DNA of 64,000 nt, taken from Leucoraja ocellata. Its lineage: Eukaryota. How positions within the stretch are numbered: the first letter of the stretch is position 1; every line of letters starts with the position of its first letter. A model generated the notes under the pieces. That model worked only from the letters and a program-made list of their open reading frames with translations, was not told the origin of the DNA and did not search any database. The position numbers and the translations under genes are program-made. Location of the stretch: positions 1 through 64,000 of the forward strand of contig JAWMAR010002088.1 in assembly GCA_036785375.1 (NCBI GenBank), read 5' to 3'. Shown piece by piece: positions 12,023-44,833 of the stretch.

Positions 12023-13086
12023 GCAACAGGAAATCACTTGTCGTCAAGTCAAGGTAAGTCAAGTCTATTTGTCACATACACATCCAAGATGTGCAGTAAA
12101 ATGAAAGTGGCAATGTCTGCGGATTGTGCAAAACAATGGAACAGGTGCTCCTGAATGTATATTGCCACTGATCAGTACTTCTACTAATGCAAGGGCATTC
12201 ATTGGCCTTGCCCTGTAAACCAACTCTGGTTCAGCAAATCCTGTCATGCCACCCCCCTTTTTGAAAAGCTTCGTACGGGCCTGATCAATATCATCAGAAC
12301 CATAGCTGGTCCCTTCACGGAGATGCGATAACAACAAAGTGCATCAGTGCATTCACTTTATTAGAAGTCTGAGAATTTTCGACTTGTCCATGAGGATTCT
12401 TTTCAAACCGGGCAGATGCGCTGTTCAAAGTATTTCGACGGATTCGTTCTCGTGCAGATACGGTAACATCATAGTCCTTAGCCGCCAGAAAACATGAAAA
12501 GGGCGTTGAAAACACTGACAATCTATCAGAATGTAACCGTTTTCTTCCATCCAGTCCAAGGCGAATGCAAGATGGCTGCCGCCCAGACCATTCCCTTATC
12601 CCATTTTAACTTCTGGAACGTCCATATTTAAGGAAAGATTATTCTCCACTGCTATCAATTTCTTAAACCGATCACGAATTTCACACCACTTTCAGGGAGG
12701 GGGCACCAAATACATTTATTCTTAACACTCCATCATTCTGTCTCGTTACTGTTACTTAGTGATTTTTTTTGTTGCAATTCCTCAAGCTGAAATACAATTT
12801 TTTCATTGCTTTTTACCATTACCGTACGCTATTATGTATGTGAGCTACATGATGTCATTGCATCCAGGTTTCTTTGACAATAACGTAATGTGAACCTGAG
12901 GTATATCAAGAAATCTTCAAAGGCTTTCATATCCACATGGTAAAGCCATGATATTTTGTTCATGCTGATGATCTTCATTGGACTGACAAACCGCCTTGAT
13001 AATATGTTGCACGTAATATGCATACAATCCTTTAAAAACTGCAGTATATTTATGAAAAACTTTATATTTTGCAAGGAGCAGTAACC

Positions 13087-14739
13087 ATGAGGGCTTTCCC
13101 GCGGCATGGTGGCATTGTACCATCGTTTCGTGCCATCCGCGGCCCACATCATGCGGCCCCTGTATCAACTTCTGGCGGGTGGGCAGCAGAAGAGCGTTGA
13201 GTGGACCCACGAGGCGGAGGCAGCTTTCGACGGCGCGAAGGAGGCCCTTGCTCGGGCCGTACTGCTGGTGCACCTGCGGGAAGCTGCCCCGACTGCTCTC
13301 ACTGTGGATGCCTCGGAGTCGGCAGTTGGTGCTGTACTGGAGCAGCTGACGGGCGGAGTTTGGCGGCCTCTGGCCTTCTTCAGTCGGCACCTCAACCGCG
13401 CGCAAACCAAGTACAGCGCGTTCGATCGTGAGCTCCTGGCTCTGTACCTGGCTGTGCGCCATTTTCGTTACTTCCTGGAGGGCCGCCCGTTCACCGCCTA
13501 CACCGACCATAAGCCGCTCACTTTCGCCCTGCAGAAGGTTTCCAACCACGTCAGCAGCGACAATTGGCTTACATCTCCGAATACGCCACAGCCATCCGCT
13601 ACGTCAAGGGGAAAGAGAACCGGATGGCCGACGCATTGTCCCGCCCTGCTATAAACGCCGTGTTCGAGGTGGCGCCCGGAATGGACTATTCTGCTCTGGC
13701 GGCGGCACAGCTCACGGACGACGAGGTGCCCACCTACTGGACTGCCATCTCCGGCCTCCGCCTTGAGGATGTCCCTCTCGGTCCTGGGGGTGTGACAATC
13801 ATGTGCGATGTGTCGTCCGGTCAACCGCGCCCCATCGTCCCTGCCACCTGGCGCCGGAGAGTGTTCGAGGTGATCCACGGACTGGCTCACCCATCAATCC
13901 GGGCGACAACGGCACTGGTAGCAGCTCGCTTCATGTGGCACGGTCTGCGCAAGCAGGTTGCCCATTGGGCTCGCACCTGCATCCCGTGCCATCGGCGGAG
14001 CTGGTGTACGGGTCGCCACTCACAGTGCCCGGGGAGTTCGTGCCGTCGGCGCCGGAGCTGCAGGAAACGCCCTCCTCCACCCTTCAACGCCTTCGCGAGC
14101 GAGTTGGCAGGCTCGCACCCGTCATTGGCCCTCACGGACTGCCCATACGTCTTCCTGCGCCGTGATGCTCACCGGACGCCACTCCAGAGGCCGTACGAGG
14201 GCCCGTTCCGGGTGCTGGAACACGGGCAGTCGACTTTTGTCCTGGATATGGGGGGCCAGCCGGAGGCCGTGTCGATTGACCGTTTAAAGCCGGCGCACCT
14301 GGACATTGACCAGCTGGTTGCCCAACCTCGGCCCCGAGGGCGCCCCCCCCCATGACTCCCTCCACCTGTCACTCCACCTGTCCTCCCGCCAGTCCCTCGA
14401 CCTGTCCCTCCACCTACGCCCCCCCAAGCCCCGGGATCTGCTGACTTCCGCACGCGGGCCGGCCGGGTCTTGCGCCCGCCGGTGCGTTTTGTGCCTCTGG
14501 TTGTGGGGGGGGGGGGGGGGGGTCCTGTGGCGGCTCCTAAGGGTCGTGCCATTATACTGCCGAACCCCTCGGCACAGGAGTGGTGCAGTCCGGAGGCGGC
14601 CCTCAGCCGGATGGTTTAAAAGGCAGGGTTTGGGTGCCATCTTTTACTGGTTTCGTCTTCCCTTCAACCAGGAGGAATAAAATAAAGGTGCTTCTCAAAC
14701 ACTGGACTTCGTGCCTCATTTTGAGACCCACGCACCACA
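13087..14739 (+). mobile_element. Gypsy/Ty3 LTR retrotransposon 3' fragment (RNase H, integrase remnants, PPT, 3' LTR)
   Basis: VDASESAVGAVLEQ, YSAFDRELLA, YTDHKPL (RNase H); HGLAHP...CIPCH (integrase zinc finger); RPYEGPFRV (GPY/F module); integrase core deleted; poly-G PPT at ~14505-14522. Confidence 0.92.
14526..14739 (+). repeat. 3' LTR (214 bp)
   Basis: Starts TGTGG just after the PPT and ends CCACA; internal tttaaaa and AATAAA (~14677). Confidence 0.75.
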
Positions 14740-15745: not shown

Positions 15746-15757
15746 TGTTAAGCATTT

Positions 15758-17141
15758 ATGTTAAGCATTTTAGAAAATATTCCATTCTACTTTGTGTTTG
15801 AACTTCGTGAAGTAATTAATGATGAACCAGGGTCCTGTTATATAAAACCAAGTTTCTACACATCACTGACCAGGATCACGTATTTATGGTTTAAAACACT
15901 CTTAACCCCATTTGCGCCATTTGTGTTGATCCTTCTTCTCAATACCTTGACCATAAAGCACATTATCATGGCCAACAGAGTCAGGAGCAAGCTCCAAGTG
16001 AGAAATAGACAGGCGTGTCAGACTGATCAAGAGACCGAGAACAGAAGGAAATCGATCATTTTACTCGTTGCAATATCTGGCAGTTTTATTTTCTTATGGA
16101 CGGTAAACCTTGTATGGCGGACTGCAGGAGTGGGGCGCCATTGTGTATGGCTGCTCCGCCTGCAGTCCGTCCTTTTACCCTTTATTTTAATTTTTATTTT
16201 TAGGCCTGTTACTTCAAAATGTTTGTTGGAGGTCTTCTTTTATGTGGTGGGTGGGGGGAGGGGAAGGGGGAAACTTCTCCTGGGACACCAACACGGAGTG
16301 GGTGATGCCTTACCGGGTCACCGTGCGGTAAGCTCCGGTGTACTTTGACCGCCGACCAACATCCGAGGAGCTGTGGCTGCGGAGCATCCAGTCACGGGCG
16401 GCGCTGGATTTAAACACCGCGGAAGCTGGGATTCGAAATCACCAGAGTCGGAGCTCCAACCAGCGTGGTCTGAAGACTTCGGGTGCCGCGCGCGGTCTCC
16501 GGGGAGGAAGCGGCCGCTCCAGACATTTCCAAGCCGCCGAGGAGTGTTCACCCGATGCCGGCATTCCAGCTTTCTGGCAAGAGGGCCTGAAAACATCGGA
16601 CTGGCTGCGGAGGCCACAAATAGGCCCCGACCTCGGGTGATCACAGAGGGAGAGGACTGAACTTTCTGATGCCTTTCCCCACAGTGGAAATTTTTTATTC
16701 TGTTGTGGGGGGACGTTTGTGTTGAATTATGCAATATGTTGTGTCATTTTTCTTAATTTTAATTTTTCTATGGATGTACAGAAGCTCAATTATTTTTTTC
16801 TATGTAAAGCACTTTGGTCTCAACGCGAGTTGATTTAAACGTGCTATATAAATACATTTTACTTACTTACTTACTTACTTGTATGCTTCATCTGTGTTCA
16901 GTTTACAGATACTCAATTTTTGGAAACAGATTACACCGAATCTTTCACCAATGCGCAAAAAAGTGGCTATATGCTGAGGTATTTGAGTACTTGCACAAAC
17001 ACTTTCATTTATGCAGTTTCTCAGAGACACTTCAGAGAGGAACTGAAGAATGTAATTTCTCATCCCTTTCTTGCCATTGCTAATATATTCAAACATTGGA
17101 ACACAAAGGGAACTTTATCAAAAAATGTAAATAAGCGATAA
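15758..17141 (+). pseudogene. GPR139/GPR142-like class A GPCR pseudogene (late TM4 to C-terminus), split by a SINE
   Basis: ENIPFYF...LTPFAPFVLILLLNTLTIKHII...ENRRKSIILLVAISGSFIFLW, continuing in frame after the 16117-16877 insertion as LVCFIC...LSTCTNTFIYAVSQRHFREELK; TM1-4 absent (TEs upstream). Confidence 0.85.
16117..16877 (+). mobile_element. 761-bp non-autonomous retroposon with L2-like 3' end and (TTAC)n tail
   Basis: 8-bp TSD CTTGTATG at 16109-16116 and 16878-16885; 3' end gtaaagcactttg...gtgctatataaat plus ttac repeats. Confidence 0.8.
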
Positions 17142-18739: not shown

Positions 18740-18934
18740 CAGATAGGCCACTTTTAGAATATTGTGTCCATTTCTGGTTGCCCCAAATGCAGGATGAATT
18801 TGGAAGCATGGAATTGGTGCAGAAGTAGTTTTCCAGAATGATGTATAGATTAGATATTAGCTTGAAGGAGAGGTTGGACAGACTTGGATTGTAATCGCTA
18901 GAATCCAAGAGGTTGATAAAAGTTTATACAATTA
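18740..18934 (+). mobile_element. Old CR1 fragment, left half (continues at 30887)
   Basis: ...ataaaagtttatacaatta joins tgagaggcatagatagg to read IKVYTI-MRGIDRIESQNLF. Confidence 0.85.
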
Positions 18935-19049
18935 CTAAACTAAGTGGGACCTGTTGGGTCCCAGCATCACACGGGAGGGCAGGTCACCCATTGCAATATT
19001 CCACCTCTCCACCAATTCCAATATTGCTTGCCAGTACGAGTTACTCATA

Positions 19050-19812
19050 CCTGAATAGTGGCCGATTAGGAAAAGGGGAGATGCAACGAGACCTGGGTGT
19101 CATGGTACACCAGTCATTGAAAGTAGGCATGCAGGTGCAGCAGGCAGTGAAGAAGGCGAATGGTATGTTAGCATTCATAGCAAAAGAATATTATAGGAGC
19201 AGGTAGGTTCTACTGCAGTCGTACAGGGTCTTGGTGAGACCACACCTGGAGTATTGCGTACAGTTTTGTTCTCCTAATCTGAGAAAATACATTCTTGCCA
19301 TAGAGGGCGTACAGAGAAGGTTCACCAGACTGATTCCTGGGATGTCAGGACTTTCATATGAAGAAAGACTGGATAGACTCGGCTTGTACTCACTAGAATT
19401 TAGAAGATTGAGGGGGGATCATATAGAAACTTACAAAATTCTCAAGGGGTTGGACAGGCTAGATGCAGGAAGATTGTTCCCGATGTTGGGGAAGTCCAGA
19501 ACAAGGGGGTCACAGTTTAAGGATACGGGGGAAATCTTTTAGGACCGAGATGAGAAAAACATTTTTCACACATAGAGTGGGGAATCTCTGGAATTCCCTG
19601 CCACAGAAGGTAGTTGAGGCCAGTTAATTGGCTATATTTAAGAGGGAGTTAGTTGTGGCCCTTGTGGCTAAAGGGATCAGGGGGTATGAAGAGAAGGCAG
19701 GTAAAGGATACTGAGTTGGATGATGAGCCATGATCATATTGAATGGCGGTGCAGGCTCGAAGGGCCGAATGGCCTACTCCTGCACCTAATTTCTATGTTT
19801 CTATGTTTCTAT
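19050..19812 (+). mobile_element. CR1 family B 3' fragment inside the Helitron composite
   Basis: ORF2 C-terminus (ORF 19231-19542) and tttctatgtttctatg tail. Confidence 0.93.
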
Positions 19813-20042
19813 GACCTCTGGGCTCACTTACTGCCTTAGGATTAACTCATGGCCTTTGGACTGACTGACTGACTCACGGCTTGTGGACTGACTAATGCCC
19901 GACTTCTGGAGTCATGACTGACTTTTGTAAACTGAAAACTGTAACATCTACATTGAGGAACAGCTTCTTCCTGACAGCCATCGGGCTATTAAACGTAATA
20001 AATAAGATCTGAACTACGAATATTATTTGTGCTATTTGTTGA

Positions 20043-20500
20043 TCACACATACACAGACACATTCACACACACACACACACAAACTCATTCACACACATGC
20101 AGATTCATTCACACACAGACTCATTGACATACACATACACACACACACACACACAGACTCATTCACACACACACATTCACACACACTCATTCATACACAC
20201 ATTCACACACACACAGACTCATTCACACACAGAGATTCATTCACACAGACACACAGACACATTCATACACACTCATTCACACACACATTCACATGCACAT
20301 TCACACGCACATTCACACACACACACACACTCATTCATACACACATTCACACACACACTCATTTACACACACACAGACAGACTCATTCACACACACAGAC
20401 TCATTCACACACATTCACACACACACACTCATTCACACAGACTCATTCACACACACACACACACATTCACACACACACAGACTCATTCACACACACATTC
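20043..20500. repeat. Complex (CA)n/CATT/CAGA microsatellite
   Basis: Direct observation. Confidence 0.95.
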
Positions 20501-20879
20501 ACCCCCCCCCCCCCAATACTAAAATGCCAAGTAACTTCAGAACGTGTTGAATATACAGTGTATAAAACAAATCTTTAAGCCTGCTGTGGAGGCTGCTGCT
20601 GAAGCAAAATCATGCTTTTAATAACGTCAAACAAACACACTCACCATAGAGAGAGCAGTAAACTCATGAATTATTTAACAGCGCCTGAACTTGCCGCCAC
20701 CTTGATGTCACCCTCTCATGATGGTCTCAGCGCCAGCATGCAGCTAACCGGAAATGACACCATCGGCGCCATCTTGCAACCAAGCGAAAGTCACAGAATG
20801 AGCACCAATTTTAAAATTAAACACAATTCTGATCTAATACAATGTTTATTCACTTTATCCATCCGAAAATTGTTGCAAG

Positions 20880-21545
20880 CAAGCCCTATAAAAAGCCAAG
20901 CAATTGGGGGAAAAAAACACTGAGCAAGCCGACAAAATACACATCAGTTCGCTGAAAAGCAATTTAAGAATCAGTTTGGGGAAAAGCAATTTTAAAAATG
21001 CCAAGCAATTGGGGGAAAAAAAACAGAGCAAGTAAGCAAGGCGGGAAAATACACATCAGTTCGGTGAAAAGCAATGAAAAAAAATGCCAAACAATTGCAG
21101 GTGAAAAACACTGAGCAAGCAAACAAGCTGAAAAAAAAACACATCCTTTCCCTGAAAACACCATCGAGGGGACTCACCGTGGAATAGACGTGCTTCACAG
21201 CTCAGAGAGCCATGACCCTCTCGCTTCCTGGGTCTGGCAGAGACTGAATGAGGCACGGCACTTCTGGGTTGTATAGTCCCTCCCCCACGGAAAAAAAAAC
21301 ACTGAGCAAGCAGGCAAGCCGACAAAAAACACATCCCTTCGCTGAAAAACAATTAAAAAAATGCCAAGCATTTGGGGAATAAAACCACCGAGCAAGCAAG
21401 CAAGCCGTCAAAAAACAAATCCGTTCGCTGAAAACCACATCGAGGGGACTCACCGTGTAGACATGCTTCGCAGCTCAGAGAGCCGTGACCCTCTCGCTTC
21501 CTGGGTCTGGCAGAGACTGAATGAGGCACGGCACTTCCCGGTTTT
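20880..21545. repeat. Internal tandem duplications of Helitron 5' subterminal sequence
   Basis: Repeated cactgagcaagc...acacatc units; two copies of catcgaggggactcaccgtg...gaggcacggcacttc; homologous to 40440-40635. Confidence 0.75.
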
Positions 21546-22530
21546 CTAGTCCCTCCCCCTGCCGCCAGAGGGGGCAGCAGAGAGAATGGGGAATTTTGTA
21601 TAAACATTAATATCTCTCTAAAATGTTTCATCAACGGGAAAATCCTCTGCTCCCAGAAGGCGGACGGGGGCTCTGAGCGAGGTGGCCAAAAATGACAGTC
21701 GTAGGTTGCGACGTTCTCTTGGAAATCGCAGCACAGTGGGCCAAAAGCGGTCAAGATCAGACTTTTAGTAATATACTAGACCAAGTGCAGACCCGTTGGG
21801 TCTGCTCCCCGAATGGTGTGATTCCCCCAACCCAATATTCCACCATGCAACCGTCTCCTCCAACGGAACTGAAGCCGTTCCCAAATGTAAGATTCCAGCA
21901 CTCCCCTGCCTCCCTCAGCAGTGGATTTTTAAAAAATTCCAATTGCACCTCCCTGCCTGCTGCAGCAGTGAAAAGTTCAGTGTTCCTGTCTTGCAACTTT
22001 GTTTTGAAGTGTGTTGGAAGCTGATAGGAAGGAGCAGCCGTCAACGAATCAAAAGGCAGAAAGGCACCCGGATGGATGGACGGCAGGCGGCAGCCACAGA
22101 CTTTTATATAATAACTAGACCAAGTGCAGACCCGTTGGGTCTGTTTCCCCAACAGCGTTTGCGGGGGGGGGGGGGGGGGGGGGGGGGAGTAGGGGCTGCG
22201 GCATCACACTCAAATTAACCACCCCCCAAACTCACAGGTGGGGGGAGGGGGGGGGTGGGTGAGAAGAGGGGAGGGAGGGGAGAGGAGGAGGAGGAAACAT
22301 GACAGATTTGGGAGGGAAAGGAGAGCGGGGTAGGGGGTGAGAGAGGGGGATGGGGAGAGAGATGTGGGGGAGGGTGGGATGGGGAGGGAGGGAAGGAGGG
22401 AGAGACGGGAAAGAGTGGGGAGTGAGAGGGAGGAGGAGAGGGGTAGGGGAAGGGGGCGGGGTAGAGAGGGAAGGGGGTGAGGGAGAGGGGTGAGGGAGAG
22501 GGGTGAGGAGAGGGAGAGGGGTGAGGAGAG

Positions 22531-23533
22531 GGAAACATAGAAATGAAGTGCAGTAGTAGGCCATTCGGCCCTTCGAGCCTGCACCGCCATTCAATATGAT
22601 CATGGCTGATCATCCAACTCAGTATCCCGTACCTGCCTTCTCTCCATACCCCCTGATCCCCTTAGCCACAAGGGCCACATCTAACTCCCTCTTAAATATA
22701 GCCAATGAACTGGCCTCAACTACCCTCTCTGGCAGAGAGTTCCAGAGATTCACCACTCTCTGTGTGAAAAAAGTTCTTCTCATCTCGGTTTTAAAGGATT
22801 TCCCCCTTATCCTTAAGCTGTGACCCCTTGTCCTGGACTTCCCTAACATCGGGAACAATCTTCCTGCATCTAGCCTGTCCAACCCCTTAAGAATTTTGTA
22901 AGTTTCTATAAGATCCCCTCTCAATCTTCTAAATTCTAGAGAGTATAAACCAAGTCTATCCAGTCTTTCTTCATAAGACAGTCCTGACATCCCAGGAATC
23001 AGTCTGTTGAACCGTCTCTGCACTCCCTCTATGGCAATAATGTCCTTCCTCAGATTTGGAGACCAAAACTGTACGCAATACTCCAGGTGTGGTCTCACCA
23101 AGACCCTGTACAACTGCAGTAGAATCTCCCTGCTCCTATACTCAAATCCTTTTGCAATTAAAGCTAACATACCATTGGCTTTCTTTACTGCCTGCTGCAC
23201 CTGCATGCCTACCTTCAATGACTGGTGTACCATGACCCCCAGGTCTCGCTGCATCTCCCCCTTTCCCAATCGGCCACCATTTAGATAATAGTCTGCTTTC
23301 CCGTTTTTGCCACGAAAATGGATAACCTCACATTTATCCACATTATACTGCATTTGCCCACTCACCCAGCCTATCCAAGTCACCTTGCAGTCTCCTAGCA
23401 TCCTCCTCACAGCCAACACTGCCCCCCAGCTTCGTGTCATCCGCAAACTTGGAGATATTGCCTTCAATTCCCTCATCCAGATCATTAATATATATTGTAA
23501 ATAGCTGGGGTCCCAGCACTGAGCCTTGCGGTA
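22531..23533 (-). mobile_element. CR1-B 3' segment embedded in a Helitron unit
   Basis: ORF 22619-23485; tail abuts the purine tract at gaggagagggaaacatagaaa. Confidence 0.92.
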
Positions 23534-23728
23534 TTTTGAATACTGAAATATTGGGAGGGGGGGGAGAAGGATTTGATTAAAAATGTCTACATAAATATGA
23601 CAAAATGTAATCAGGAGTTTCTATAAGATCCTCCCTCAATCTTCTAAAATCTAGCGAGTACAAGCCGAGTCTATCCAGTCTTTCTTCATATGAAAGTCCT
23701 GACATCCCAGGAATTAGTCTGGTGAACC

Positions 23729-24500
23729 TTAACCATATAACCATATAACAATTACAGCACGGAAACAGGCCATCTTGACACTTCTAGTCCGTGCCGAACA
23801 CGTATTCTCCCCTAGTCCCATATACCTGCACTCAGACCATAACCTTCCATTCCTTTCCCGTCCATATAACTATCCAATTTATTTTTAAATTATAAAAACG
23901 AACCTGCCTCCACCACCTTCACTGGAAGCTCATTCCACACAGCCACCACTCTCTGAGTAAAGATGTTCCCCCTCATGTTACACCTAAACTTATGTCCCTT
24001 AATTCTCATGTCATGTCCCCTTGTTTGAATCTTCCCTACTCACAGTGGGAAAAGCTTATCCACGTCAACTCTGTCTATCCCTCTCATCATTTTAAAATGA
24101 CTCTATCAAGTCCCCCCTTAACCTTCTGCGCTCCAAAGAATAAAGCCCCAACTTGTTCAACCTCTCTCTGTAACTTAGTTGCTGAAACCCAGGCAACATT
24201 CTAGTAAATCTCCTCTGTACTCTCTCCATTTTGTTGACATCCTTCCTATAATTAGGCGACCAAAATTGTACACCATACTCCAGAATTGGCCTCACCAATG
24301 CCTTGTACAATTTTAACATTACATCCCAACTTCTATACTCAATGCTCTGATTTATAAAGGCCAGCACACCAAAAGCTTTCTTTACCACCCTATCTACATG
24401 AGATTCCACTTTCAGGGAACTGTGCACAGTTATTCCCAGATCCCTCTGTTCACCTACATTCTTCAATTCCCTACCATTTACCATGTAATTCCCTACCATT
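23729..24500 (-). mobile_element. CR1 family A 3' fragment inserted into the array
   Basis: aaccatataaccatata tail; ORF 24092-24499. Confidence 0.92.
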
Positions 24501-26976
24501 TACCATGTAAGAGGAGAGAAGTGGGAGAGTGGGGAGGAAGGGGTAGAGAGACTGGTGGAAGAGGGACAGATTGGTAGGGGAAGGGGGTGGGGGAGAGAGG
24601 GATGGGTGGCAGAGGGAGAGAGAGAGGGACACATAGAAACATAGAAATTAAGTGCAGGAGTAGGCCATTCGGCCCTTCGAGCCTGCACCGCCATTCAATA
24701 TGATCACGGCTGATCATCCAACTCAGTATCCCGTACCTGCCTTCTCTCAATACCCCCTGATCCCTTTAGCCACAAGGGCCACATCTAACTCCCTCTTAAA
24801 TATAGCCAATGAACTGGCCTCCAGTACCTTCTGTGGCAGAGAGTTCCAGAGATTCACCACTCTCTGTGTGAAAAATGTTCTTCTCATCTCGGTCCTAAAG
24901 GATTTCCCCTTTATCCTTAAACTGTGTCCCGCAACATGTGGAACAATCTTCCTGCATCAGACAAATGCAATTCAGGACTTTTCACTTCACAAGCAAATCA
25001 GAAATGACAGTTAGTGAAGAATTTGAATAATCACTGAGCGTTCTCTATGGCAACAATGTATTTGAGCATTGGGCATTGTGACATCACACGATGGAATGTT
25101 CACCGGGGCTGTGGCTCCTGCAAAGGCATATGTAAATGACTCCAATCCGATTGGCCATCTGTGAGCATCGGGCATTGTGACATCACACGATGGAACGTTC
25201 ACAGGGAGCTGCTTGTGTGGGTGAGAATCCAGTTTCTTTTTGAAATATTGAGGTGGTGGGGGGGGGGGGGTGTAGGATTTGATTAAAAAAGCGTACTCAA
25301 ACACGATGAAATGTAACGAGGAGCGGATACTTAGAAAGAAAAGCGAAATCTCTACCGAAATGGAAAAGACGTCGGCGATTCCGCGTCCGGTTTCGGAGTT
25401 GCGGAGCGTCAAAGGAAGAAACGCGGCGGACGCCGTACGGCGGCAGGCGGACTGATTCGAGTTTTATATATATACTAGACCAAGTGCAGACCCGTTGGGT
25501 CTGTTTCCCCAACAGCGTTTGCGGGGGGGGGGGGAGGGGGGAGGGGGAGTAGGGGCTGCGGCATCACACTCAAATTAACCACCCCCCAAACTCACGTGGG
25601 GGGAGGGGGGGGGGGGGTGGGTGAGAAGAGGGGAGGGAGGGGAGAGGAGGAGGAGGAAACATGACAGATTTGGGAGGGAAAGGAGAGCGGGGTAGGGGGT
25701 GAGAGAGGGGGATGGGGAGAGAGATGTGGGGGAGGGGGGATGGGGAGGGAGGGGAAGAGGGGGAGAGGGGTGGAGGGAGAGACGGGAAAGAGTGGGGAGT
25801 GAGAGGGAGGAGGAGAGGGGTAGGGAGAAGGGGGCGGGTGGAGAGAGGGAAGGGGTTGGGGTAGAGAGGGAAGGGGGTGAGGGAGAGAGGGAGAGGGGTG
25901 AGAGAGAGGGGTGAGGAGAGAGAGAGGGGTGAGGAGAGGGAAACATAGAAATTAAGTGCAGTAGCAGGCCATTCGGTCCTTCGAGCCTGCACCACCATTC
26001 AATATGATCAAGGATGATCATCCAACTCAGTATCCTGTACCTGCCTTCTCTCCATACCCCCTGATCCCTTTAGCCACAAGGGCCACATCTAACTCCCTCT
26101 TAAATATAGCCAATGAACTGGCCTCAACTTCTGTGGCAGAGAATTCCAGAGATTCACCACTCTCTGTGTGAAAAATGTTTTTCTCATCTCGGTCATAAAG
26201 GATTTCCCCCTTATCCTTAAACTGTGACCCCCTGTTCTGGACTTCCCCAACATCTGGAACAATCTTCCTGCATCTAGCCTGTCCAACCCTTTAAGAATTT
26301 TGTAAGTTTCTATAAGATCCCCCCTCAATCTTCTAAAATCTAGCGAGTACAAGCCAAGTCTATCCAGTCTTTCTTCATTTGAAAGTCCTGACATCCCAGG
26401 AATCAGTCTGTTGAACCTTCTCTGTACTCCCTTTATGGTCTGTTTCCCCAACGGCGTTTGCGGGGGGGGGGGTTGAGAAGAGGGGAGGGAGGAGGAGGAA
26501 ACGGGATAGATTTGGGAGGGAAAGGAGAGCGGGGTAGGGGGTGAGGGATGGGGAGAGAGCTTTGGGGGAGGGGGGATGGGGAGGGAGGGGAGCAGGGTGG
26601 GATGGGGAGAGGGGTGGGGGGAAAGAGGGGAAAGAGTGGGGAGGGAGGAGGAGAGGGGTAGCGGGAGTGATGGAAGAGGGACAGAGGGATAGGGGAAGGG
26701 TGTGGGGGGAGAGAAGGTAGGGGGTGGGGTAGAAGAGGGAAGCGGGTGGGGGAGAGAGGGATGGGAGAGGGGTTAGGAGAGGGGGAGGAGAGAGTGGGAG
26801 AGAAGTGGAAGAGTGGGGAGGGAGGGAGGGGTAGAGGGGTAGCGGGAGTGGTAGAAGAGGGACAGAGGGGAGGGGGGAAGGGGGTGGTGGTAGAGAGGGA
26901 AGGGGGTGGTGGTAGAGAGGGAAGGGGGTGGGGGAGAGAGAGATGGGTGGCAGAGGGAGAGGGGTGAGGAGAGGGA

Positions 26977-28205
26977 CACATAGAAACATAGAAATTAAGT
27001 GCAGTAGTAGGCCATTCGGCCCTTCGAGCCTGCACCATTCTCCATTCAATATGATCACGGCTGATAGAAACATAGAAACATAGAAATTAGGTGCAGGAGT
27101 AGGCCATTCGGCCCTTCGAGCCTGCACCGCCATTCAATATGATCATGGCTGATCATCCAACTCAGTATCCCGTACCTGCCTTCTCTCCATACCCCCTGAT
27201 CCCCTTAGCCACAAGGGCCACATCTATCTCCCTCTTAAATATATCCAATGAACTGGCCTCAACTACCCTCTGTGGCAGAGAGTTCCAGAGATTCACCACT
27301 CTCTGTGTGAAAAAAGTTCTTCTCATCTCGGTCACAAAAGATTTCCCCCTTATCCTTAAGCTGTGACCCCTTCTCCTGGACTTCCCCAACATCGGGAACA
27401 ATCTTCCTACATCTAGCCTGTCCAACCCCTTAAGAATTTTGTAAGTTTCTATAAGATCCCCTCTCAGTCTCCTAAATTCTAGAGAGTATAAACCAAGTCT
27501 ATCCAGTCTTTCTTCATAAGACAGTCTTGACATCCCAGGAATCAGTCTGGTGAACCGTCTCTGCACTCCCTCTATGGCAATAATGTCCTTCCTCAGATTT
27601 GGAGACCAAAACTGTACGCAATACTCCAGGTGTGGTCTCACCAAGACCCTGTACAACTGCAGTAGAACCTCCCTGCTCCTATACTCAAATCTTTTTGCAA
27701 TGAAAGCTAACATACCATTCACTTTCTTCACTGCCTGCTGCACCTGCATGCCTACCTTCAATGACTGGTGTACCATGACACCCAGGTCTCGCTGCATCTC
27801 CCCCTTTCCCAATCGGCCACCATTTAGATAATAGTCTGCTTTCCCGTTTTTGCCACCAAAATGGATAACATCACATTTATCCACATTATGCTGCATCTGC
27901 CAAACATTTGCCCACTCACCCAGCCTATCCAAGTCACCTTGCAGTCTCCTAGCATCCTCCTCACAGCTCCCCCCCTCTCCATACCCCCTGATCCCTTTAG
28001 CCACAAGGGCCACATCTAACTCCCTCTTAAATATAGCCAATGAACTGGCCTCCACTACCTTCTGTGGCAGAGAGTTCCAGAGACTCACCACTATCTGTGT
28101 GAAAAATGTTTCCCTCATCTCAGTACTAAAGGATTTCACCTTTATCCTTAAACTGTGTCCCGCGTGTCCTGGACTTCCCCAACATCTGGAACAATCTTCC
28201 TGCAT
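26977..28205 (-). mobile_element. Nested CR1-B 3' fragments within a Helitron unit
   Basis: Second tail at ~27065 inside the first; ORF 27162-28205. Confidence 0.85.
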
Positions 28206-30886
28206 CAGACAAATGCAATTCAGGACTTTTCACTTCACAAGCAAATCAGAAATGACAGTTAGTGAAGAATTTGAATAATCGCTGAGCGTTCTCTATGGCA
28301 ACAATGTATTTGAACATTGGGCATTGTGACATCACACGATGGAACGTTCACCATGGGCTGGGATCCTGCAAAGGCATATGTAAATGAATCCATTCCGATT
28401 GGCCATCTGTGAGCATCGGGCATTGTGACATCACACGATGGAACGTTCACAGGGAGCTGCTTGTGTGGGTGAGAATCCAGTTTCTTTTTGAAATATTGAG
28501 GTGGGAGGGGGGGGGGGGGGTGTAGGATTTGATTAAAAAAGCGTACTTAAACACGACGAAATGTAACGAGGAGCGGATACTTAGAAAGAAAAGCGAAATC
28601 TCTACCGAAATGGAAAAGACGTCGGCGATTCTGCGTCCGGTTTCGGAGTTGCGGAGCGTCAAAGGAAGAAACGCGGGGCGGGGAGGAGGGAGGGATGGGG
28701 AGAGGTGTGGGGGGAAATAGTCGGGAGGGAGAGTGAGGGGAAGGGGGAGAGAAGTGGAAGAGTGGGGAGGGAGGTGGAGAGGGGTAGCGGGAGTGATGGA
28801 AGAGGGGCAGAGGGATAGGGGGAAGGGGGTGGGGGGAGAGAGGGAAGGGGGTGGGGTAGACAGGGAACGGGGGTGGGAGAGAGAAGGATGGGAGAGGGGT
28901 GAGGAGAGGGGGAGGAGACAGTGGGAGAGAAGTGAAAGAGTGGGAGAGAAGTGAAAGAGTGGGGAGGGAGGGAGGGGTAGCGGGAGTGGTAGAAGAGGGA
29001 CGGGGAGTGGTGGAAGAGGGACAGAGGGGAAGGGGATGGGGTGGGGGAGAGTGGGGAAGGGAGGGGAAGAGAGAGGGGTGGGGGTGGGAGAGGCATGGGG
29101 TAAGGGGATAGAAGTGGAAGAGTGGGGAGGGAGGGGTAGGGGGAGTGGTGAAAGAGGGACAGAGGGGTAGGGGGAAGGGGGTGGCGGTAGCGAGGGAAGG
29201 GGGGTGGGGGATAGAGAGATGGGTGGGAGAGTGAGAGGGGTGGGGAGAGGGAAACATAGAAATTAAGTGCAGGAGTAGGCCATTCGGACCTTTGAGCCCG
29301 CACCACCATTCAATATGATCATGGCTGATCATCCAACTCAGTATCCTGTACCTGCCTTCTCTCCATACCCCCTGATCCCTTTAGCCACACAGGCCACATC
29401 TAACTCCCTGTTAAATATAGCCAATGAACTGGCCTCAACTACCTTCCATGGCACAGAATTCCAGGGATTCACCATTCTCTGTGTGAAAAATGTTTTCCTC
29501 ATCTCGGTCCTAAAAGATTTCCCCCTTATCCTTAAACTGTGATCCCTTGTTCTGGACTTCCCCAACATCGGGAACAATCTTCCTGCATCTAGCCTGTACA
29601 ACCCTTAAGAATTTTCTATAAGATCCCCCCTCAATCTTCTAAATTCTAGCGTGTACAAGCCGAGTCTATCCAGTCTTTCTTCATATGAAAGTCCTGACAT
29701 CCCAGGAATCAGTCTGGAGAACCTTCTCTGTACTCCCGACATTTTTCCGATTTTCTCTAATTTAATAAAAATGTGCAAGTCTTATTCATATCGAGTTTCA
29801 GCGGTGATTTATATAAATATTTTTACACAATATGTGACAATTTCATGTAGTTTGGTGACTTGGGTCACGAAACTGCTGAATAAAGCTCCTCGGCCCACAG
29901 CCTATTCTCTGTACTCCCAATATGGCAACAATGTATTTGAACATTGGGCATTGTGACATCACACGATGGAATGTTCACCATGGGCTGTGGCTCCTGCAAA
30001 GGCATATGTAAATGAATCCATTCCGATTGGCCATCTGTGAGCATCGGGCATTGTGACATCACACGATGGAACGTTCACAGGGAGCTGCTTGTGTGGGTTA
30101 GAATCCAGTTTTGTTTTTGAAATATTGAGGTGGCGGGGGGGGGGGGGGGGTGTAGGATTTGATTAAAAAAGCGAACTTAAACACGACGAAATGTAACGAG
30201 GAGCGGATACTTAGAAAGAAAAGCGAAATCTCTACCGAAATGGAAAAGACGTCGGCAATCCTGCGTCCGGTTTCGGAGTTGCGGAGCGTCAAAGGAAGAA
30301 ACGCGCGGCGGACGCCGTACGGCGGCAGGCGGACTGATTTGAGTTTTATATATATACTAGACCAAGTGCAGACCCGTTGGGTCTGCTCCCCCAATGGTGT
30401 GATCCCCCAACCCAATATTCCACCATGCACCCGTCTCCTCCATTGGAACTGAGCCCGTTGCCAAATGTAAGTTTCCAGCACTCCCCTGCCTCCCTCAATT
30501 GCAGCCCTCCCCTGCCTGCTGCAGCAGTGAAAAGTTCAGTGTTCCTCTCTTGCAACTTTGTTTCGAAGTGTGTTGGAAGCTGATGTAAATGGAGAAGCCT
30601 GTTTATTTTTGAATTACTTGGGGGGGGGGGGGGGGGGGGGGGAGAAGGATTTGATTAAAAACATGTACTTCAGCACGACGAAATGAAATGAGGAGCGGAT
30701 ACTTAGAAAGAAAAGCGAAATCTCTACCGAAGGGGAAATATCTCGGAGATTGAGCGTCCGGTTTCGGAGTTGCGGAGCGTCAAAGGAAGAAACGCGCGGC
30801 GGACGCCGTACGGCGGCAGGCGGACTGATTTGAGTTTTATATATATATAGATAAAGAAGATAAGAAAGATAAGATAGATAGATAGA

Positions 30887-30995
30887 TGAGAGGCATAGAT
30901 AGGATAGAGAGTCAGAACCTTTTTACACAGGGTGTAAATATAAAGTAATGGAGGGCACAGCTTTCATGTGAGTGGGACATGGTGTAAAGGGCCAT
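30887..30995 (+). mobile_element. Old CR1 fragment, right half
   Basis: tgagaggcatagataggatagagagtcagaacc continues the fragment ending at 18934. Confidence 0.85.
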
Positions 30996-31786: not shown

Positions 31787-31838
31787 ATGCTTCTTTTTAC
31801 CTTACTCAACACTTACGGTGTGGCCACTGTCTCATCTG
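31787..31838 (+). CDS. MHC class I-like gene exon 1 (signal peptide MLLFTLLNTYGVATVSS)
   Basis: aaaacATG start, hydrophobic leader ending VSS, donor G|GTAAGC in phase 1 matching exon 2 (G+AT = Asp). Confidence 0.72.
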
Positions 31839-34678: not shown

Positions 34679-37600
34679 ACACAGTTTATCACAGTCTCCT
34701 CCCACCCATCTCTATGAGCTGTGTTGCAGCTAATAGACATGCTGCCTATGAGGACCTGGACTCAGTTCTGATCTCTTACAACCTGGCATTTTTTTAAATT
34801 TTTCCTGCAAACGTGTGTTTTCTATGGTTATTCCAGTTTCCCCCAACGTCCCAAAAATGCCGGGCTGAAAGGTAAGTTGGCCAGTGTGAATTGATCATGC
34901 AGATGTATTAGAATTGCTGTAGGGGATGGGGGAAGTGTTAATGGCAGAGTGGAAAATATTAAATGGGTTAGCGTACCACAAGTATAAATAGGTGTTTGAT
35001 AGTTACCACGAACTTGGTGGGCTAAAGGGCCTTTTTATGGTCTGTACCCAGAGGCCACAAGTTTAAGATGAGGGGGGAATGATTTAATAGGAACCTGAGT
35101 CGTAGCTTTGTTACACAAAGGGTGGTGGGTGGAACTGAATTAACTGCCGGAGGAGGTAGTTCCGGCACGTACTATCGCAACATTTTAGAAACACTAGACC
35201 AAGTGCAGACCCATTGGGTCTGTTTCCCCAACGGCGTTTGCGGGGGGGGGGGGGGGGGGGGGGGGGGGGCGCATCACACTCACATTAACCACCCCCCCAA
35301 ACACACAGGTGGGGGGAGGGGGATGAGAAGAGGAGGGGGATTGGAGAGGAGGAGGAGGAAACAAAACAGATTAGGGAGGGAAAGGAGAACGGGTAGCGGG
35401 TGAGAGAGGGGGATGGGGAGAGAGATGTGGGGGAGGGAGTGATGAGGAGGGAGGGAGGGAGGGGAGAGGGGTGGGGAGAGAGAGGGGAAAGAGTGGGGAG
35501 GGAGAGTGGAGGGGGGAAGGGGGGAGAGAAGTGGAAGAGTGGAGAGGGAGGGGTAGGGGCAGTGGTAGAAGAGGGACAGAGGGGTAGGGGGCAGGGGGAG
35601 AGAGGGAAGGGTGGGGTAGAGAGGGAAGGGGGGTGGGGGAGCGAGGGATGGGGGAGGGAGTGAGGAGAGGGGGAGGAGATAAGGGGGAGAGAAGTGGAAG
35701 AGTGGAGAGGGAGGGAGGTGTAGAGGGGTAGCGGGAGTGGTGGAAGAGGGACGGGGAGTGGTGGAAGAGGGACAGAGGGGTAGGGGAAGGGGTGGGGGAG
35801 AGAGGGGTGTGGGAGGGAGAGGGGTGGCGTAAGGGCAGAGAAGTGGAAGAGTGGGGAGGGAGGGGTAGGGGAGTGGTGGAAGAGGGACAGAGGGGTAGGG
35901 CGAAGGGGGCAGGGGAGAGAGGGAAGGGGGGTGGGGAGAGCGGTGAGGAGAGAGAAACATAGAAATTGGGTGCAGGAGTAGGACATTCGGCCCTTCGAGC
36001 CTGCACCACCATTCAATATGATCATGGCTGATCATCCAACTCAGTATCCCGTACCTGCCTTCTCTCCATACCCCCTGATCCCTTTAGCCACAAGGGCCAC
36101 ATCTAACTCCCTCTTAAATATAGCCAATGAACTGGCCTCAACTACCTTCTGTGGCAGAGAATTCCAGAATTTCACTCTCGGTGTGAAAAATGTTTTTCTC
36201 ATCTCTTTCCTAAAGGATTTCCCCGTATCTTTAAACTGTGACCCCTTGTTCTGGACTTCTCCAACATCTGGAACAATCTTCCTGCATCTAGCCTGTCCAA
36301 CCCCTTAAGAATTTTGTAAGTTTCTATTAGATACCCCGTCAATCTTCTAAAATCTAGCGAGTACATGCCGAGTCTATCCAGTCTTTCTTCATATGAAAGT
36401 CCTGACATCCCAGGAATCAGTCTGGTGAACCTTCTCTGTACTCCCTCTATGGTAACAATGTATTTGAGCATTGGGCATTGTGACATCACACGATGGAACG
36501 TTCACCAGGGGCTGGGGCTGGGGCTGATTCTATGGGTGAGAAGCCAGTTTTTTTTTAAAATATTGGGGGGGGGGAGAAGGATTTGATTAAAAATGTGTAC
36601 ATAAACATGACGAAATGTAATCAGGAGCGGATACTTTGAAAGAAAAGTGAAATCTCTACCGAAATGGAAAATATCTCGGCGATTCTGCGTCTGGATTCGG
36701 CGTGGCAAGGAATCAAAGGAAGAAAGGCAGTCGACAGCCGTACATGTAAATGGATCTATTCCAATTGGACATCTGCGAGCATTGGGCATTGTGACATCAT
36801 ACGATGGAACAAATCAAAAGGCAGAAAGGCAGGCGGACGGACGGACGGACGGGGGCAGCCACAGAGTTTTAATCTATAACTAGACCAAGTGCAGACCCCT
36901 TGGGTCTGTTTCCCCAACGGCGTTTGCGGGGGGGGGGGGGGGGCTGCGGCATCACACTCACATTAACGACCCCCCAAACACACAGGTGGAGGGAGGGGGG
37001 TGAAAAGAGAGGAGGGAGGGGAGAGGAGGGGGATGGAACGGGACAGATTTGGGAGGAAAGGAGAGCGGGGTAGCGGTTGAGAGAGGGGATGAGGAGAGAG
37101 ATATGGGGGAGGGGAGGGAGGGGAGGAGGGAGGGAGGGGGAGAGGGGTGGGGGAAGAGAGGGGAAAGAGTGGGGAGGGAGACTGGAAGGGGAATAGGGAG
37201 AGAAGTGGGGGGAGTGAGGGGTAGGGGGAGTGGTGGAAGAGGGACAGAGGGGTAGGGGAAGGGGGCGGGGGGAGAGGGAAGGGGGTGCGGTAGAGAGTGA
37301 ATAGGGTGGGGGAGAGAGGGATGGGTGGGAGAGGGAGAGGGGTGAGGAGAGGGAAACAGAAACATAAGAAACTATAAGATCACCCCTCAATCTTCTAAAT
37401 TCTAGCGAGTACAAGCCGAGTCTATCCAATCTTTCTTCATACTCTCTGCCACAGAGGGTAGTTGAGGCCAGTTCATTGGCTATATTTAGGAGGGAGTTAG
37501 ATGTGGGCCTTGTGGCCAAGGGGATCAGAGGGTATGGAGAGAAGGCAGGTACGGGATACTGAGTTGGATGATCAGCCATGATCATATTAAATGGCGGTGC

Positions 37601-38771
37601 AGGCTCGAAGGGCCGAATGGCCTACTCCTGCACCTAATTTCTATGTTTCTATGTTTCTATATGAAAGTCCTGACATCCCAGGAATCAGTCTGGTGAACCT
37701 TCTCTGTACTCACTCTATGGCAAGAATGTCTTTGGGCATTTGGCTTTGTGACATCACACGATGTAACGTGGGGTGAGAGAGGGGAATGGGGAGAGAGATG
37801 TGTGGGAGGGGAGGGATTGGGAGGGAGGGGAGGAGCGAGGGAGGGGGAGAGGGGTGGGGGGAGATAGGGGAAAGAGTGGGGAGGGAGAGTGGAGGGGGAA
37901 GGGGGAGAGAAGTGGAAGAGTGAGGAGGGAGGGGTAGAGGAAGCGAGTGGGGGAGAGGGAAGGGGGGGGGGGTGGGGGAGAGAGACATGGGTGGGAGAGG
38001 GAGAGGGGTGAGGAGAGGGAAACATAGAAACATAAGATTCTATAAGTGTGAATATAAATTCTATATGAGTCAGTCTGGTTAACCTTCTCTGTACTCCCTC
38101 TATGGCAACAATGTCTTTGGGCATTGGGCATTGTGACATCACATGATGGAACGTTCACCAGGGGCTGGGGCTGGTACAAAGGCATATGTAAATGGATCCA
38201 TCCCGATTGGACATCTGCGAGCATTGGGCATTGTGACATCACACGATGGAAACGAATCAAAAGGCAGAAAGGCAGCCGGACAAACGGACGGCGGCAGCCA
38301 CAGAGTTTTAATATATAACTAGACCAAGTGCAGACCCATTGGGTCTGTTCCCCCCAGTTGTGGGGGGTGGGGGGGAGGTGGCATGCAGCATCACACACAC
38401 TAACAACCCCTCCCCCCCGCCCTCATGCTAATTACCCCCCTTGATATTATATTAATATTATTAATTTGCTCCTTTTATCCCATAACCACCCTATCTACTG
38501 ACGCATAGCCCCAACTTGCAGTCACATCTAGAGAGGGGGGGAGGGGGAGGGAGGGGTAGAGAGTGAGGGCAGAGAGAGAAGGGGCAGAGACACAGAGAGA
38601 GGGGCAAGAGGGAGAGGGGTGGCGAGGAGGAGAAGAGGGAGGGTGGGTGAGAGGGGAAAGGTGGGGGTGGAGGGGAGGAGAGAGAGAGGGTGAGAGTGAG
38701 GGGAAGAGAGGGGGGAGGAGAGGGGGGGAGGGGAGGGGGGGAGGAGAGGGGGGGAGGAGAGGGGGAGAGGA

Positions 38772-39985
38772 GAAACATAGAAACATAGAAAGTAGGAGCG
38801 AGAGTAGACCACCAGGCCGTCGAGCCCGCACCGCCATTCGCTCATGGCTGAACACTAAACAGACACACTTACCCACAAACAGTAGACACAAGACACAGAA
38901 CACAAGACACTACCCTCCCCTTTATACCGCTATCACCCCTCTCCACCCCAAGAACCTCGTGATCTCCTGGGGGAGGCAAAAATACGGATAAAAACCCAGG
39001 TCCAATTCGGGAAAAAAATCCGGGAAATTCCTCTCCGACCCCAATCCAGGCGATCGACACTTGTCCAGGAGATCACTCAGGTCTTACTATACTAACCATA
39101 CCTAGGTCCATATCCCTGCCCTCTCCCCGTAGCCCCTTATCCCCTTGGCAGCTAAAAAACCATCTATTTTAGTCTTAAATATATTTAAAGTTTCTGCTTC
39201 CACTGCTCCCTGGGGCAGTGAATTCCATAAATTAACCACCCTCTGGGTGAAGAAGTTCTTCCTCATCTCAGTTTTAAAAGAGCCCCCCTTATTCTGCAAC
39301 TATGTCCCCTAGTTCTAGTTTCCCCGATCATTGGGAACATCCTCGGTGCATCCACCCGATCAAGGCCCCTCACGATCTTATATGTTTCAATGAGATCGCC
39401 TCTCATTCTTCTAAACTCCAAAGAGTAGAGTTCCAGCCTACTTAACCTTTCCTCATATGTCAATCCCCTCATTGCAGGATTAATCTTGTAAACCTTCGCT
39501 GCACTGCCTCCAGGGCTAGTACATCCTTTCTTAAGTATGGACCCCAGAACTGTACACAGTATTCCAAATGTGGTCTCACTAATACTGTGTACAGCTGCAG
39601 CAAGACCTCCGTGTTTTTATACTCAATCCCCCTAGCAATAAAGGCCAAAACTCCATTGGCCTTCCTGATTGCTTGCTGCACCTGCATACTAACTTTCAGT
39701 GATTCATGTACTAATACCCCTAGATCCCTTTGCGTTGCATTACAACGCAGCTCCTCCTCATTTAGAAAATAACTTGCCCTATCATTTTTTTCCCAAAGTG
39801 AATGACTTCACATTTATTAGTATTAAATTTCATCTGCCAAGTTGTTGCCCACTCACCTAGCTTATCTATATCCTTTTGCAGACTCTTCCTATCCTCCTCA
39901 TCCCCTACTTTTCCTCCCATTTTTGTATCGTCCGCAAATTTTGATATATTACACTTGGTTCCCTCCTCCAAATCATTTATATAAA
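38772..39985 (-). mobile_element. CR1 family C fragment (distinct 3' UTR) inside a Helitron unit
   Basis: ORFs 39762-39971 (KFADDTK), 39469-39687, 39263-39472 and 39102-39299; gaaacata tail. Confidence 0.88.
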
Positions 39986-40067
39986 ATGGGGGGAGAGGAG
40001 AGGGGGGAGGAGAGGGGTAGAGGAGAGGAGGGGGGGAGGGGAGGGGGGGACGAGAGATGGGGACGAG

Positions 40068-40215
40068 AGGGATTGGATGAGAGGGGGGGACGAGAGGGGG
40101 GACGAGAGGGGGGGCGAGAGGGGGGGCGAGAGGGGGGCGAGAGGGGGGGCGAGAGGGGGGCGAGAGGGGGGGCGAGAGGGGGGGCGAGAGGGGGGGCGAG
40201 AGGGGGGCGAGAGGG
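40068..40215. repeat. (GAGAGGGGGGC)n ~11-bp tandem repeat
   Basis: Direct observation, about 12 units. Confidence 0.85.
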
Positions 40216-41028
40216 GGGAGAGGAGAGGGGGGAGAGGAGAGGGGGGGAGGTGGAGAGGGGGGGGAGGTGGAGAGAGGGGGGGAGAGGAGAGGGGGGGGGG
40301 GGGGGGGGAGAGGAGAGGGGGGGGAGAGAGAGAGTGCCTTTTTATTTCAACCCAAACCCCCAAACAACCATTTGGAGGCAGTGCTTTTTGACTTTAACCA
40401 TATTTTCATTTTCAAACCACATTAATGGTACTTACTCACAGTTGTGTGCACATTTGTTCAGTTTATTCACAGCTCAGAGAAACGTGACCCGCTGCCTTCC
40501 TCCAGCTTGCAGACTAATTGATGCACACCACTTCCCGGTTTTATACGGCCGTAGGTGGCGGTGTTCTCTCGGAAATCGCAACACAGATGGCCAAAACTGG
40601 TCAAGAACAGACTAACAGACTTTTAGTAATATAGACTAGACCAAGTGCAGACCCGTTGGGTCTGTTTCCCCAACGGCGTTTGCGGGAGGGGGGGGGCGGG
40701 TGGCTGTGGCATCACACTCACATTAACCACCCCCCAAACACACAGGTGGGGGAGGGTGGGTGGGAAGAGGGGAGGGAGGGGAGAGGAGGAGGAGGAAACA
40801 GAACAGATTTGGGAGGGAAAGGAGAGCAGTATAGGTGTTGAGAGAGGGGGATGGGGAGGGAGGGGGAGAGGGGTGGGGGAAAGAGGGGAAAGAGTGGGGA
40901 GGGAGAGTGGAGGGGGAAGGGGGGAGAGAAGTGGTACTGATGAAATACAGGCACTGTAGATGGGGCATGTTGGCCGGTGTGGCAGTTTGAGCCGTAGGCC
41001 CTGAGTCCATGCTGTATGACTCTACGAC

Positions 41029-42418: not shown

Positions 42419-42610
42419 GGCTCCTGACCCAAATTGTTACCTGATCATTGATGCTGCCTGCCCCACTGAGCTCCTCCAGCACTTGGATCTGCAGATCCTT
42501 GTAACACCCTTATTCAAATTTCTTGTACTGTTATCAGTTTTAGCATTAATAGCTTTGAGTTCTTTACAGTGAATGATACAATCATACTCATTTTTGTTTA
42601 TGCATTGCAG

Positions 42611-42871
42611 ATTTTCACCAACTTGCATTTTACTACCTGTTGAACCATGGATTGAGTGAGCTGCCTGAGTACAGTATGGTAGCAATGTTGGATGACCTCC
42701 AGATAGCATATTTTGACAGCACATTAGAGCGGGCTGTTCCCAGACAGCGATGGATGGCCCAGTCTTTCCCGCAGGATCACTGGGATTCAATGGCCATCAC
42801 AGTTGCAGGTTTTCATGGGATTGTCAAAGGAAATGCTGAGATCGTTTACCAACAGCAACATGGTATATTGA
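42611..42871 (+). CDS. MHC class I-like exon 2 (alpha1 domain)
   Basis: ttgcAG acceptor, A|GTAAGT donor, 261 nt; (D)FHQLAFYY...LPEYSMVAMLDDLQIAYFDS...AVPRQRWM...DHWD. Confidence 0.92.
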
Positions 42872-42989
42872 GTAAGTGTCGTGACCGGACCTGGGGTGGA
42901 GACCCAGTGATGCCACAGATGGATTTTGTTTTAGTTTTGTTGCTGTCACATGTACTGGAGTAATCTGACACACTTGTTTTGCACGTTAG

Positions 42990-44200: not shown

Positions 44201-44378
44201 ACGGCCCATCTTTTATATTAAATGTGTCCTTACCGCTGAACACCCATTGATAACAGTTGGCTGGTGATAATATATTTATGGGTTATGCATTTGATATTCA
44301 ACACCAGTAATAAGTGGATGGAATGGATCATCTGTTTAATTGGGCTAGAATGAGGGAGAAAACATTAGTTTATTTATA

Positions 44379-44475
44379 TTCTGAAGAAGGGTTTTGACCT
44401 GAAACGTTGCCTATTTCCTTCGCTCCATAGATGCTGCTGCACCCGCTGAGTTTCTCCAGCACTTTTGTGTACCTT
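44379..44475 (+). mobile_element. Penelope-like repeat with intact hammerhead core motifs
   Basis: CTGAAGA-A-GGGT-TTTG-ACCT-GAAA-CGTT at 44381-44408. Confidence 0.55.
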
Positions 44476-44741: not shown

Positions 44742-44833
44742 GAAATCTGAGTTCTATCCTTCTTACAGAGCAGAACACCTTTAGTGCAGAAATCTGAGTT
44801 CTATCCTTCTTACACAGCAGAACACCTTTAGTG
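44742..44833. repeat. Direct tandem duplication, 47-bp period
   Basis: gaaatctgagttctatccttcttaca(g/c)agcagaacacctttagtg twice. Confidence 0.9.

Follow-up and report, generated by a model that had tools for sequence, protein, structure and literature searches.

The window considered here, i.e., the whole 64,000-nucleotide stretch of Leucoraja ocellata DNA under analysis (GenBank assembly GCA_036785375.1, contig JAWMAR010002088.1, positions 1 to 64,000 of the forward strand), contains, close to a major histocompatibility complex (MHC) class I-like gene, an old CR1 element split at an A|T (the bar denotes the point of insertion) by an insert of 11,952 bp at 18935..30886. This insert is a polar head-to-tail array of five non-autonomous Helitron units, namely U1 to U5, belonging to two families, A and B, and sitting at one A|T. 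In a preliminary description of the same DNA, the insert had been presented as a single 12-kb composite Helitron; what that description overlooked is the mechanism written in its inner structure, i.e., inner 5' ends that are beheaded in one register, and short TC-stubs stacked at the outer border. The components of the locus are as follows:

18745..18934, plus strand: left half of the CR1 (reverse transcriptase region), ending at the A of the target A|T
18935..21775, minus strand: U1, non-autonomous family-B unit, presumably the oldest, with hairpin and TTAG end, CA tract and beheaded 5' end
19048..19810, plus strand: CR1 3' piece within U1, replacing about 300 bp of family-B sequence found in related copies (comparison with loci L233 and L234)
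20044..20497, no strand: CA-rich tract, part of family B
21776..22114, minus strand: U2, 339-bp family-A unit, beheaded, 95-96% identical to solo-matching copies; intact copies begin TCTA
22115..25474, minus strand: U3, 3.36-kb family-A unit, beheaded, its cargo a mosaic in which two CR1 families and GA tracts are combined
25475..30356, minus strand: U4, 4.88-kb family-A unit, beheaded, its cargo consisting of CR1 pieces and GA tracts
30357..30851, minus strand: U5, 495-bp family-A unit with intact TCTA head, in the youngest position, 97% identical to the copy at locus L187
30852..30886, minus strand: stack of eight TC-stubs, 35 bp, parsed by us from outer to inner as TCTA, TCTA, TCTA, TCTTA, TCTT, TCTTA, TCT and TCTTTA
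30887..30990, plus strand: right half of the CR1, beginning with the T of the target

Borders, ends and cargo of the array

The borders were rechecked on the window sequence and lie where the preliminary description had placed them. Translated apart, the left CR1 flank ends ...LIKVYTI and the right one reads RGIDRIESQNLF. When each flank was aligned separately, they proved contiguous on two of the four CR1 copies in the window, the left alignment ending at subject position 512 (two flank letters unaligned) and the right one beginning at 515 in the first copy, and at 1235 and 1238, respectively, in the second; in the remaining two copies, the left alignment ended 18-20 letters early, making them uninformative. 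No repeat longer than 1 nt is present at the borders (k = 1-11), hence no target-site duplication, and the only letter shared is a T, which is both the start of TC and the base following the 3' end. At 23 other loci, the flanks joined flush in 4 and at -6, in a tandem host repeat, in 1, the remaining 18 being uninformative.

On the minus strand, the insert begins with TC at 30886, the head of U5 begins with TC at 30851, and 3' ends occur as TTAG at 18935 and as CTAG at 21776, 22115, 25475 and 30357, each with a hairpin of 7-8 bp located 10-12 nt upstream of the end (shuffle z of -1.7 to -3.0, modest by itself). In the 3.44-Gb genome, the exact CTAG end is present in 7,277 copies, followed by T in 7,194 and by another base in 83, while the TTAG variant of U1 is present in 181 copies, other family-B ends being mostly CTAG. 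The A|T insertion without duplication, the TC and hairpin termini, the two end families and the accumulation at one dinucleotide, all put forward in the preliminary description, hold, and the A|T preference of the CTAG ends, whose absence would have refuted that description, is present. The Helentron/HLE2 type does not fit, the target being A|T rather than T|T and the ends TC and CTAG, though no separate search for subterminal inverted repeats was made.

The single composite element is what the inner structure does not bear out. All four inner 5' ends (U1 to U4) are beheaded in one register, TC being absent there though present in intact copies, and CTAG|TC is kept in none of the four inner junctions. 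Moreover, full-length copies beside other neighbours exist for U3 (L206, 85.8% identity with gaps), U4 (L174, 95.5% over 4,920 columns) and U5 (L187), and the whole 12-kb span was not found as a unit at another locus, the best 40 candidates being scored in each genome similarity search. U1 matches a broken autonomous copy on contig C21 at 72-87% and has similar copies at L233 and L234.

The LINE (long interspersed nuclear element) and microsatellite pieces had likewise been thought to have accumulated at this site. The inner LINE mosaic of U3 recurs at 39 other places (91-98% identity) and that of U4 at 39 others (95-99%), always among the best 40 candidates; with the same junctions at all of them, local insertion of the U3 and U4 pieces was rejected. 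Three autonomous parent copies match 9,184 of the 11,952 inserted bases, including a CR1 3' piece and a GA tract near the family-A 3' end. By these comparisons, most LINE and microsatellite pieces appear to be cargo that the families already carried. Local accumulation stands only for the CR1 piece of U1, the sole LINE piece that looks local and probably a local insertion, 38 of its 39 other matches ending at its junction.

The internal mosaics of U3 and U4, together with the lack of any short-read contig spanning the array, could also be read as recombination between dispersed Helitron copies or as a repeat assembly artefact. Such an origin is very hard to credit, since the flanks are flush on the CR1, the mosaics exist as multicopy families and beheading in a fixed register is not expected from recombination; the left border, furthermore, is crossed without difference by contigs of two public runs, X1 and X18, either of which may be related to the source of the assembly. 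In organism F, no contig over the left border was present among those listed. An organism-F contig ending at 30886 (20 letters over) was left unused as border evidence, with 10 differences in 76 letters, and may stem from another CR1.

Tip register, landing motif and probable order of arrival

The target of these Helitrons was characterised from 77 host flanks, obtained from 112 BLAST-classed host flanks (the other class comprising 116 Helitron flanks) after Helitron heads were removed by motif and near-duplicates merged. The resulting landing motif is A|T-N7/8-AAA, with frequencies of 0.95 for T+1, 0.65 for T+8, 0.62 for A+9, 0.82 for A+10, 0.77 for A+11 and 0.64 for A+12, and the combination T1+A10A11 is found in 49 of the 77 flanks, compared with 8.9% of the 3,904 A|T sites taken as background. 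The left-half CR1 site, read on the minus strand, scores at the 99.5th percentile of background A|T sites, being itself among the 77 from which the matrix was made. Intact heads have the form TCTA-T-N7-TAAAA. When 27 distinct heads were scored, the highest-ranking A|T was the one following TCTA in 23, i.e., the tip of the element resembles the site in which it lands.

Inner junctions follow the same register. Among 116 sampled, 93 show the predicted register and 6 keep TC, but the choice of loci enriched this sample for junctions; the genome-wide share is therefore taken only from whole-genome pattern counts, in which T-N7-TAAAA[CG]T[CG], i.e., a beheaded tip, comes directly after 2,547 of 9,666 family-A 3' ends (26%), a figure that includes junctions inherited by copying. 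By hand count, about 25 of the 100 rows listed for the young family-A head lie directly after a family-A end and none after a precise CTAG|TC, about 15% of rows being attributable to chance by the control. The possibility that inner junctions carry a 2-nt TA duplication was dismissed for family A, in which remainders beginning TTA show none. Near-identical locus pairs on the same contig, often inverted, were also observed (L071/L072, L075/L076, L080/L081, L117/L118 and others), which suggests duplications or retained haplotypes and may have inflated the genome-wide counts.

Rolling-circle replication has been invoked for tandem Helitron arrays, and aberrant junctions are reported for about half of the Helraiser circles (PMC5876387), so that a rolling-circle concatemer with imprecise end joining could be envisaged, the TCTA run then being an ordinary slippage microsatellite, as the existence of runs of more than 20 TCTA would suggest. 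The heterologous junctions in a fixed register contradict such a concatemer, which is largely excluded here and to which we give little credence: junction loss falls in one register (93/116) that matches the host motif and is polar between families, a family-A end preceding a family-B head 235 times and a family-B end preceding a young family-A head 3 times, with 12,165 family-B ends available. The five units, unlike in length and family, are therefore not copies of one circle.

Instead, the array was most likely built stepwise at one CR1 A|T, each unit inserting about 4 bases inside the 5' tip of the prior unit, a tip that matches the landing motif. The first unit, U1, would have landed at the A|T of the old CR1; a new unit would then insert after the TCTA of the resident 5' tip, likely because this tip (TCTA|T-N7-TAAAA) matches the preferred landing site, and would thereby behead the resident. 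Each insertion would leave the severed TC-stub on the outside, and with a stub left outside each time, the array would stay flush at the original A|T and look like one element. This stepwise model starts from what was directly observed, namely the anatomy of the array, the A|T-N7/8-AAA motif, the single inner register, the separate copies of U3 to U5 and RepHel coding sequences with family-A ends.

The stubs are thus likely the severed tips of earlier units. Their number tracks that of the units in 33 other arrays (rho 0.65), with stubs at least as numerous as units in 32 of them; these were the loci, out of 40, with an outermost head and a countable array, 2 having been dropped for want of an end in range and 5 for internal heads, and units were counted by hand, open arrays giving lower bounds. 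Single-unit loci carry 1-3 stubs, except for one with 16. At L157, two stubs and one body lie between flush flanks and surplus stubs are therefore not host sequence; their likely sources are slippage, the loss of units, or donors whose copying started at an outer TC and stopped at the first hairpin. Head types differ with unit length, TCT(T) being found in 13 of 14 long units and TCTA in 22 of 23 short ones, and the window stack, with TCTA outside and TCT(T) types inside, has the order expected for U1 and U2, then U3 and U4.

Intact family-B heads are two bases shorter in about 85 of the 100 rows listed, about 6 being long and intact and 4-5 beheaded (hand count); the two closest relatives of U1 have the long head. 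At host sites, TAAA begins at +7 in only 2 of 77. Short family-B heads are either protected by this spacing, or the cut can fall at C|T; being rarely beheaded, they perhaps represent an escape from self-insertion.

With respect to chronology, U1 appears to have come first, followed by U2, U3, U4 and U5 in this order, though two neighbouring units may have arrived together. An arrival of U3 to U5 after the split from organisms B and F is favoured on the basis of best-match ages, polarity between families, public-run depths and one organism-B contig. The best genome match of the U1 head is 89% (best 40 of 4,562 candidates), against 96% for U2 and 97% for U3 to U5. In public runs, the young family-A head (bin 30823-30863) has a summed depth of 132,316 in organism E, 65,334 in A, 74 in B and 126 in F, the neighbouring CR1 bin ranging from 105,000 to 253,000 in the four; relative to that bin, the head is about 1000 times rarer in B and F than in A and E, in terms of summed contig depth and not of copy number. 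The organism-B contig extends past the left border by 15 letters of U1, fewer than the 31 required by the bridging rule.

Clean outer borders would also fit a composite that had been assembled elsewhere and moved here in one or two events, each spanning the outer TC through the last hairpin, with the inner terminators being read through. Read-through of 3' ends has been described for Helraiser (PMC4778049), unit-type pairs recur, and locus L152 consists of three units with a single mutated head. This course of events is nevertheless unlikely: (i) the stub stack of the window is unique in the genome at 1 mismatch, (ii) the nearest copies differ in age between U1 and U3 to U5, as given above, (iii) organism B nearly lacks the U3-U5 head but appears to possess the U1 end, and (iv) the order of the window on both sides is found at none of 14 U3-type and none of 14 U4-type loci, within flanks limited to 1.5 kb. 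Where the head is visible, it follows a long-unit end, as in the window, in 2 of 8 U3-type loci (a short-unit end in 3, a stub stack in 3), and a short unit, as in the window, in 1 of 12 U4-type loci. Tip insertion would still be required to explain the junctions.

Several observations nonetheless weigh against stepwise tip insertion, besides the inherited junctions and the shortness of the organism-B contig already mentioned. No empty or partly filled allele was found in same-assembly searches or in short-read contigs of the public runs; within the assembly, the left flank recurs only as a common repeat, the leader region occurs once, the allelic contig C563 breaks off at about window position 42,500, short of the array, and the paralogue on C588 does not reach the insertion site. 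No short-read contig of the public runs bridges the right border, near which contigs break. Eight stubs face four beheaded units, and with one single-unit locus bearing 16, stubs are therefore no one-to-one count. The agreement in stub order is post hoc and relates to one array, and L187 has TCT tokens without a long unit; TCT(T) heads, in addition, could arise only through cuts at T|T or from a TA run of greater length. The matrix rates a cut after the TCTA of short family-B heads highly, yet such a junction occurs in 0 of the 100 rows listed. Finally, a U2-type unit precedes a family-B head at 19 score-selected loci and, in the 6 cases visible, a U3-type unit precedes a U2-type head once; one or two of the window junctions may therefore have come ready-made.

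Autonomous relatives and the MHC class I-like gene

The preliminary description had regarded the insert as non-autonomous, and indeed tblastn with a 1,851-aa (amino acid) RepHel returned no match in the window; the array is non-autonomous. Elsewhere in the genome, the PF14214 profile matched 120 of 150 candidates. Open RepHel frames are present on contigs C2974, C2153 and C168 (L053-L058), with lengths of 1,764, 1,851 and 1,520 aa, the first two lying between family-A ends (two of eight regions fetched), i.e., the flanked RepHel that had been proposed as a search target does exist. The long frames exhibit HUH and Y2 motifs as well as Helitron_like_N and PIF1 domains, and match Helraiser (PDB 7lcc) at E 6e-193 over residues 433-1477. 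The 95% mutual identity of the two longest suggests recent activity. As for family B, an autonomous copy on C21 is in pieces, with about 72% protein identity, and shares head and internal sequence with U1. U1 to U5 would have been mobilised in trans by family-A and family-B RepHel.

The 5' end of the array faces a leader-like ATG at 31787, 900 bp apart:

31787..31838, plus strand: probable leader exon of the MHC class I-like gene, made of 17 leader-like codons opened by ATG and followed by a GT donor

Further downstream, Pfam MHC_I and C1-set are matched by exons near 42.6, 45.4 and 49.5 kb. The distance of 0.9 kb from the MHC start codon given in the preliminary description is accurate with respect to this ATG, which, judged from the sequence, is probably the start of the gene. 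This closeness carries no functional weight for an effect of the array. Seven further family-A 3' ends lie in the window, at 35194-40700 and 51874-53263 (minus strand) and at 10965 (plus strand), six of which, all on the minus strand, are in introns of the MHC-like gene; those at 51874-53263 form an array of two ends with about 12 TCTA at its head, and at 40636 a precise CTAG|TC junction leads onto a family-B head.

Related sequences occur on other contigs. C563:1173001-1185577 (L276, L278) is 99.6-99.9% identical to window 42529-55130 and likely represents a second haplotype. At C588:9007-12288 (L272), the alpha-2 exon has a paralogue of 86% identity that contains a TGA stop and is followed by a CR1 insertion. 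The window contig itself carries a second MHC class I-like exon, 38% identical, on the opposite strand and some 80 kb farther on (C2088:125960-126229), and a U1-like family-B element without the CR1 piece (L233, C2088:119877-123115) adjoins this second MHC-like gene. On the other side of the array, broken frames at 12917-14355 presumably correspond to the RNase H and integrase region of a long terminal repeat retrotransposon, and those at 15752-17141 resemble what we take to be a G-protein-coupled receptor gene.

Relation to known Helitrons

With 5' TC, a 3' hairpin followed by a CTRR-type end, insertion at A|T, absence of duplication and the RepHel match, the two families resemble canonical Helitrons (HLE1, Helraiser/Helibat1), U1 departing from them by its TTAG variant. 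Helraiser, too, favours targets whose 3' side is AT-rich (PMC4778049). In the window families, this 3'-side preference has a defined spacing, A being favoured from +9 to +12, and the element's own tip conforms to it, though the Helraiser logo (Fig. 5a of that source) may already show this spacing. The accessible main text of the same paper describes circle junctions as precise CTAG|TC and contains neither "nested" nor "tandem."

Helitron self-insertion is already known. For Fusarium FoHeli (PMC5148889) and maize helA (PMC3288121), it was proposed as a source of multiple 5' or 3' termini, and extra 5' ends were suggested to be carried along when copying starts at the outer 5' end and stops at the first 3' end; as far as the accessible texts go, cases were few or positions varied, and the duplicated 5' pieces measured up to 200 bp, unlike the present fixed register about 4 nt in, the stubs of 3-6 nt and the involvement of about a quarter of 9,666 ends. 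Head-to-tail arrays in plant centromeres, bats and Xenopus (Heli2Xen) were read, in the accessible parts of PMC5876387 and PMC12001565, as repeats of one monomer; the window array is likewise head-to-tail but mixes lengths, families and ages, with the youngest at the 5' side. What appears to be new is the fixed tip register and the stub stacks. No description of these, or of such Helitron families in rays or sharks, was found in the literature searched, figures (whose logos may show spacing), supplements and subscription papers being outside the search.

Taken alone, the locus is modest, a 12-kb stack of repeats lying 0.9 kb away from what is likely the start of an MHC class I gene, and the weight lies in the genome-wide rule. 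Helitron target choice, tandem arrays and multiple termini are usually left at "AT dinucleotide" and "rolling circle," and thousands of junctions here yield a spaced target motif and a simple rule, testable with existing Helraiser integration data or in a cell assay. By this rule, each array would be a record of insertion order, and an origin is offered for the TCTA repeats at Helitron 5' ends. More broadly, and with confidence only somewhat above even, the landing-site motif being that of the element's own 5' end would make every copy a docking site, and fixed-register insertion would build polar, datable arrays, the youngest unit at the 5' side, and seed (TCTA)n microsatellites; heads shorter by two bases would largely escape this fate, and the family, of which open RepHel frames remain, may have been active recently.

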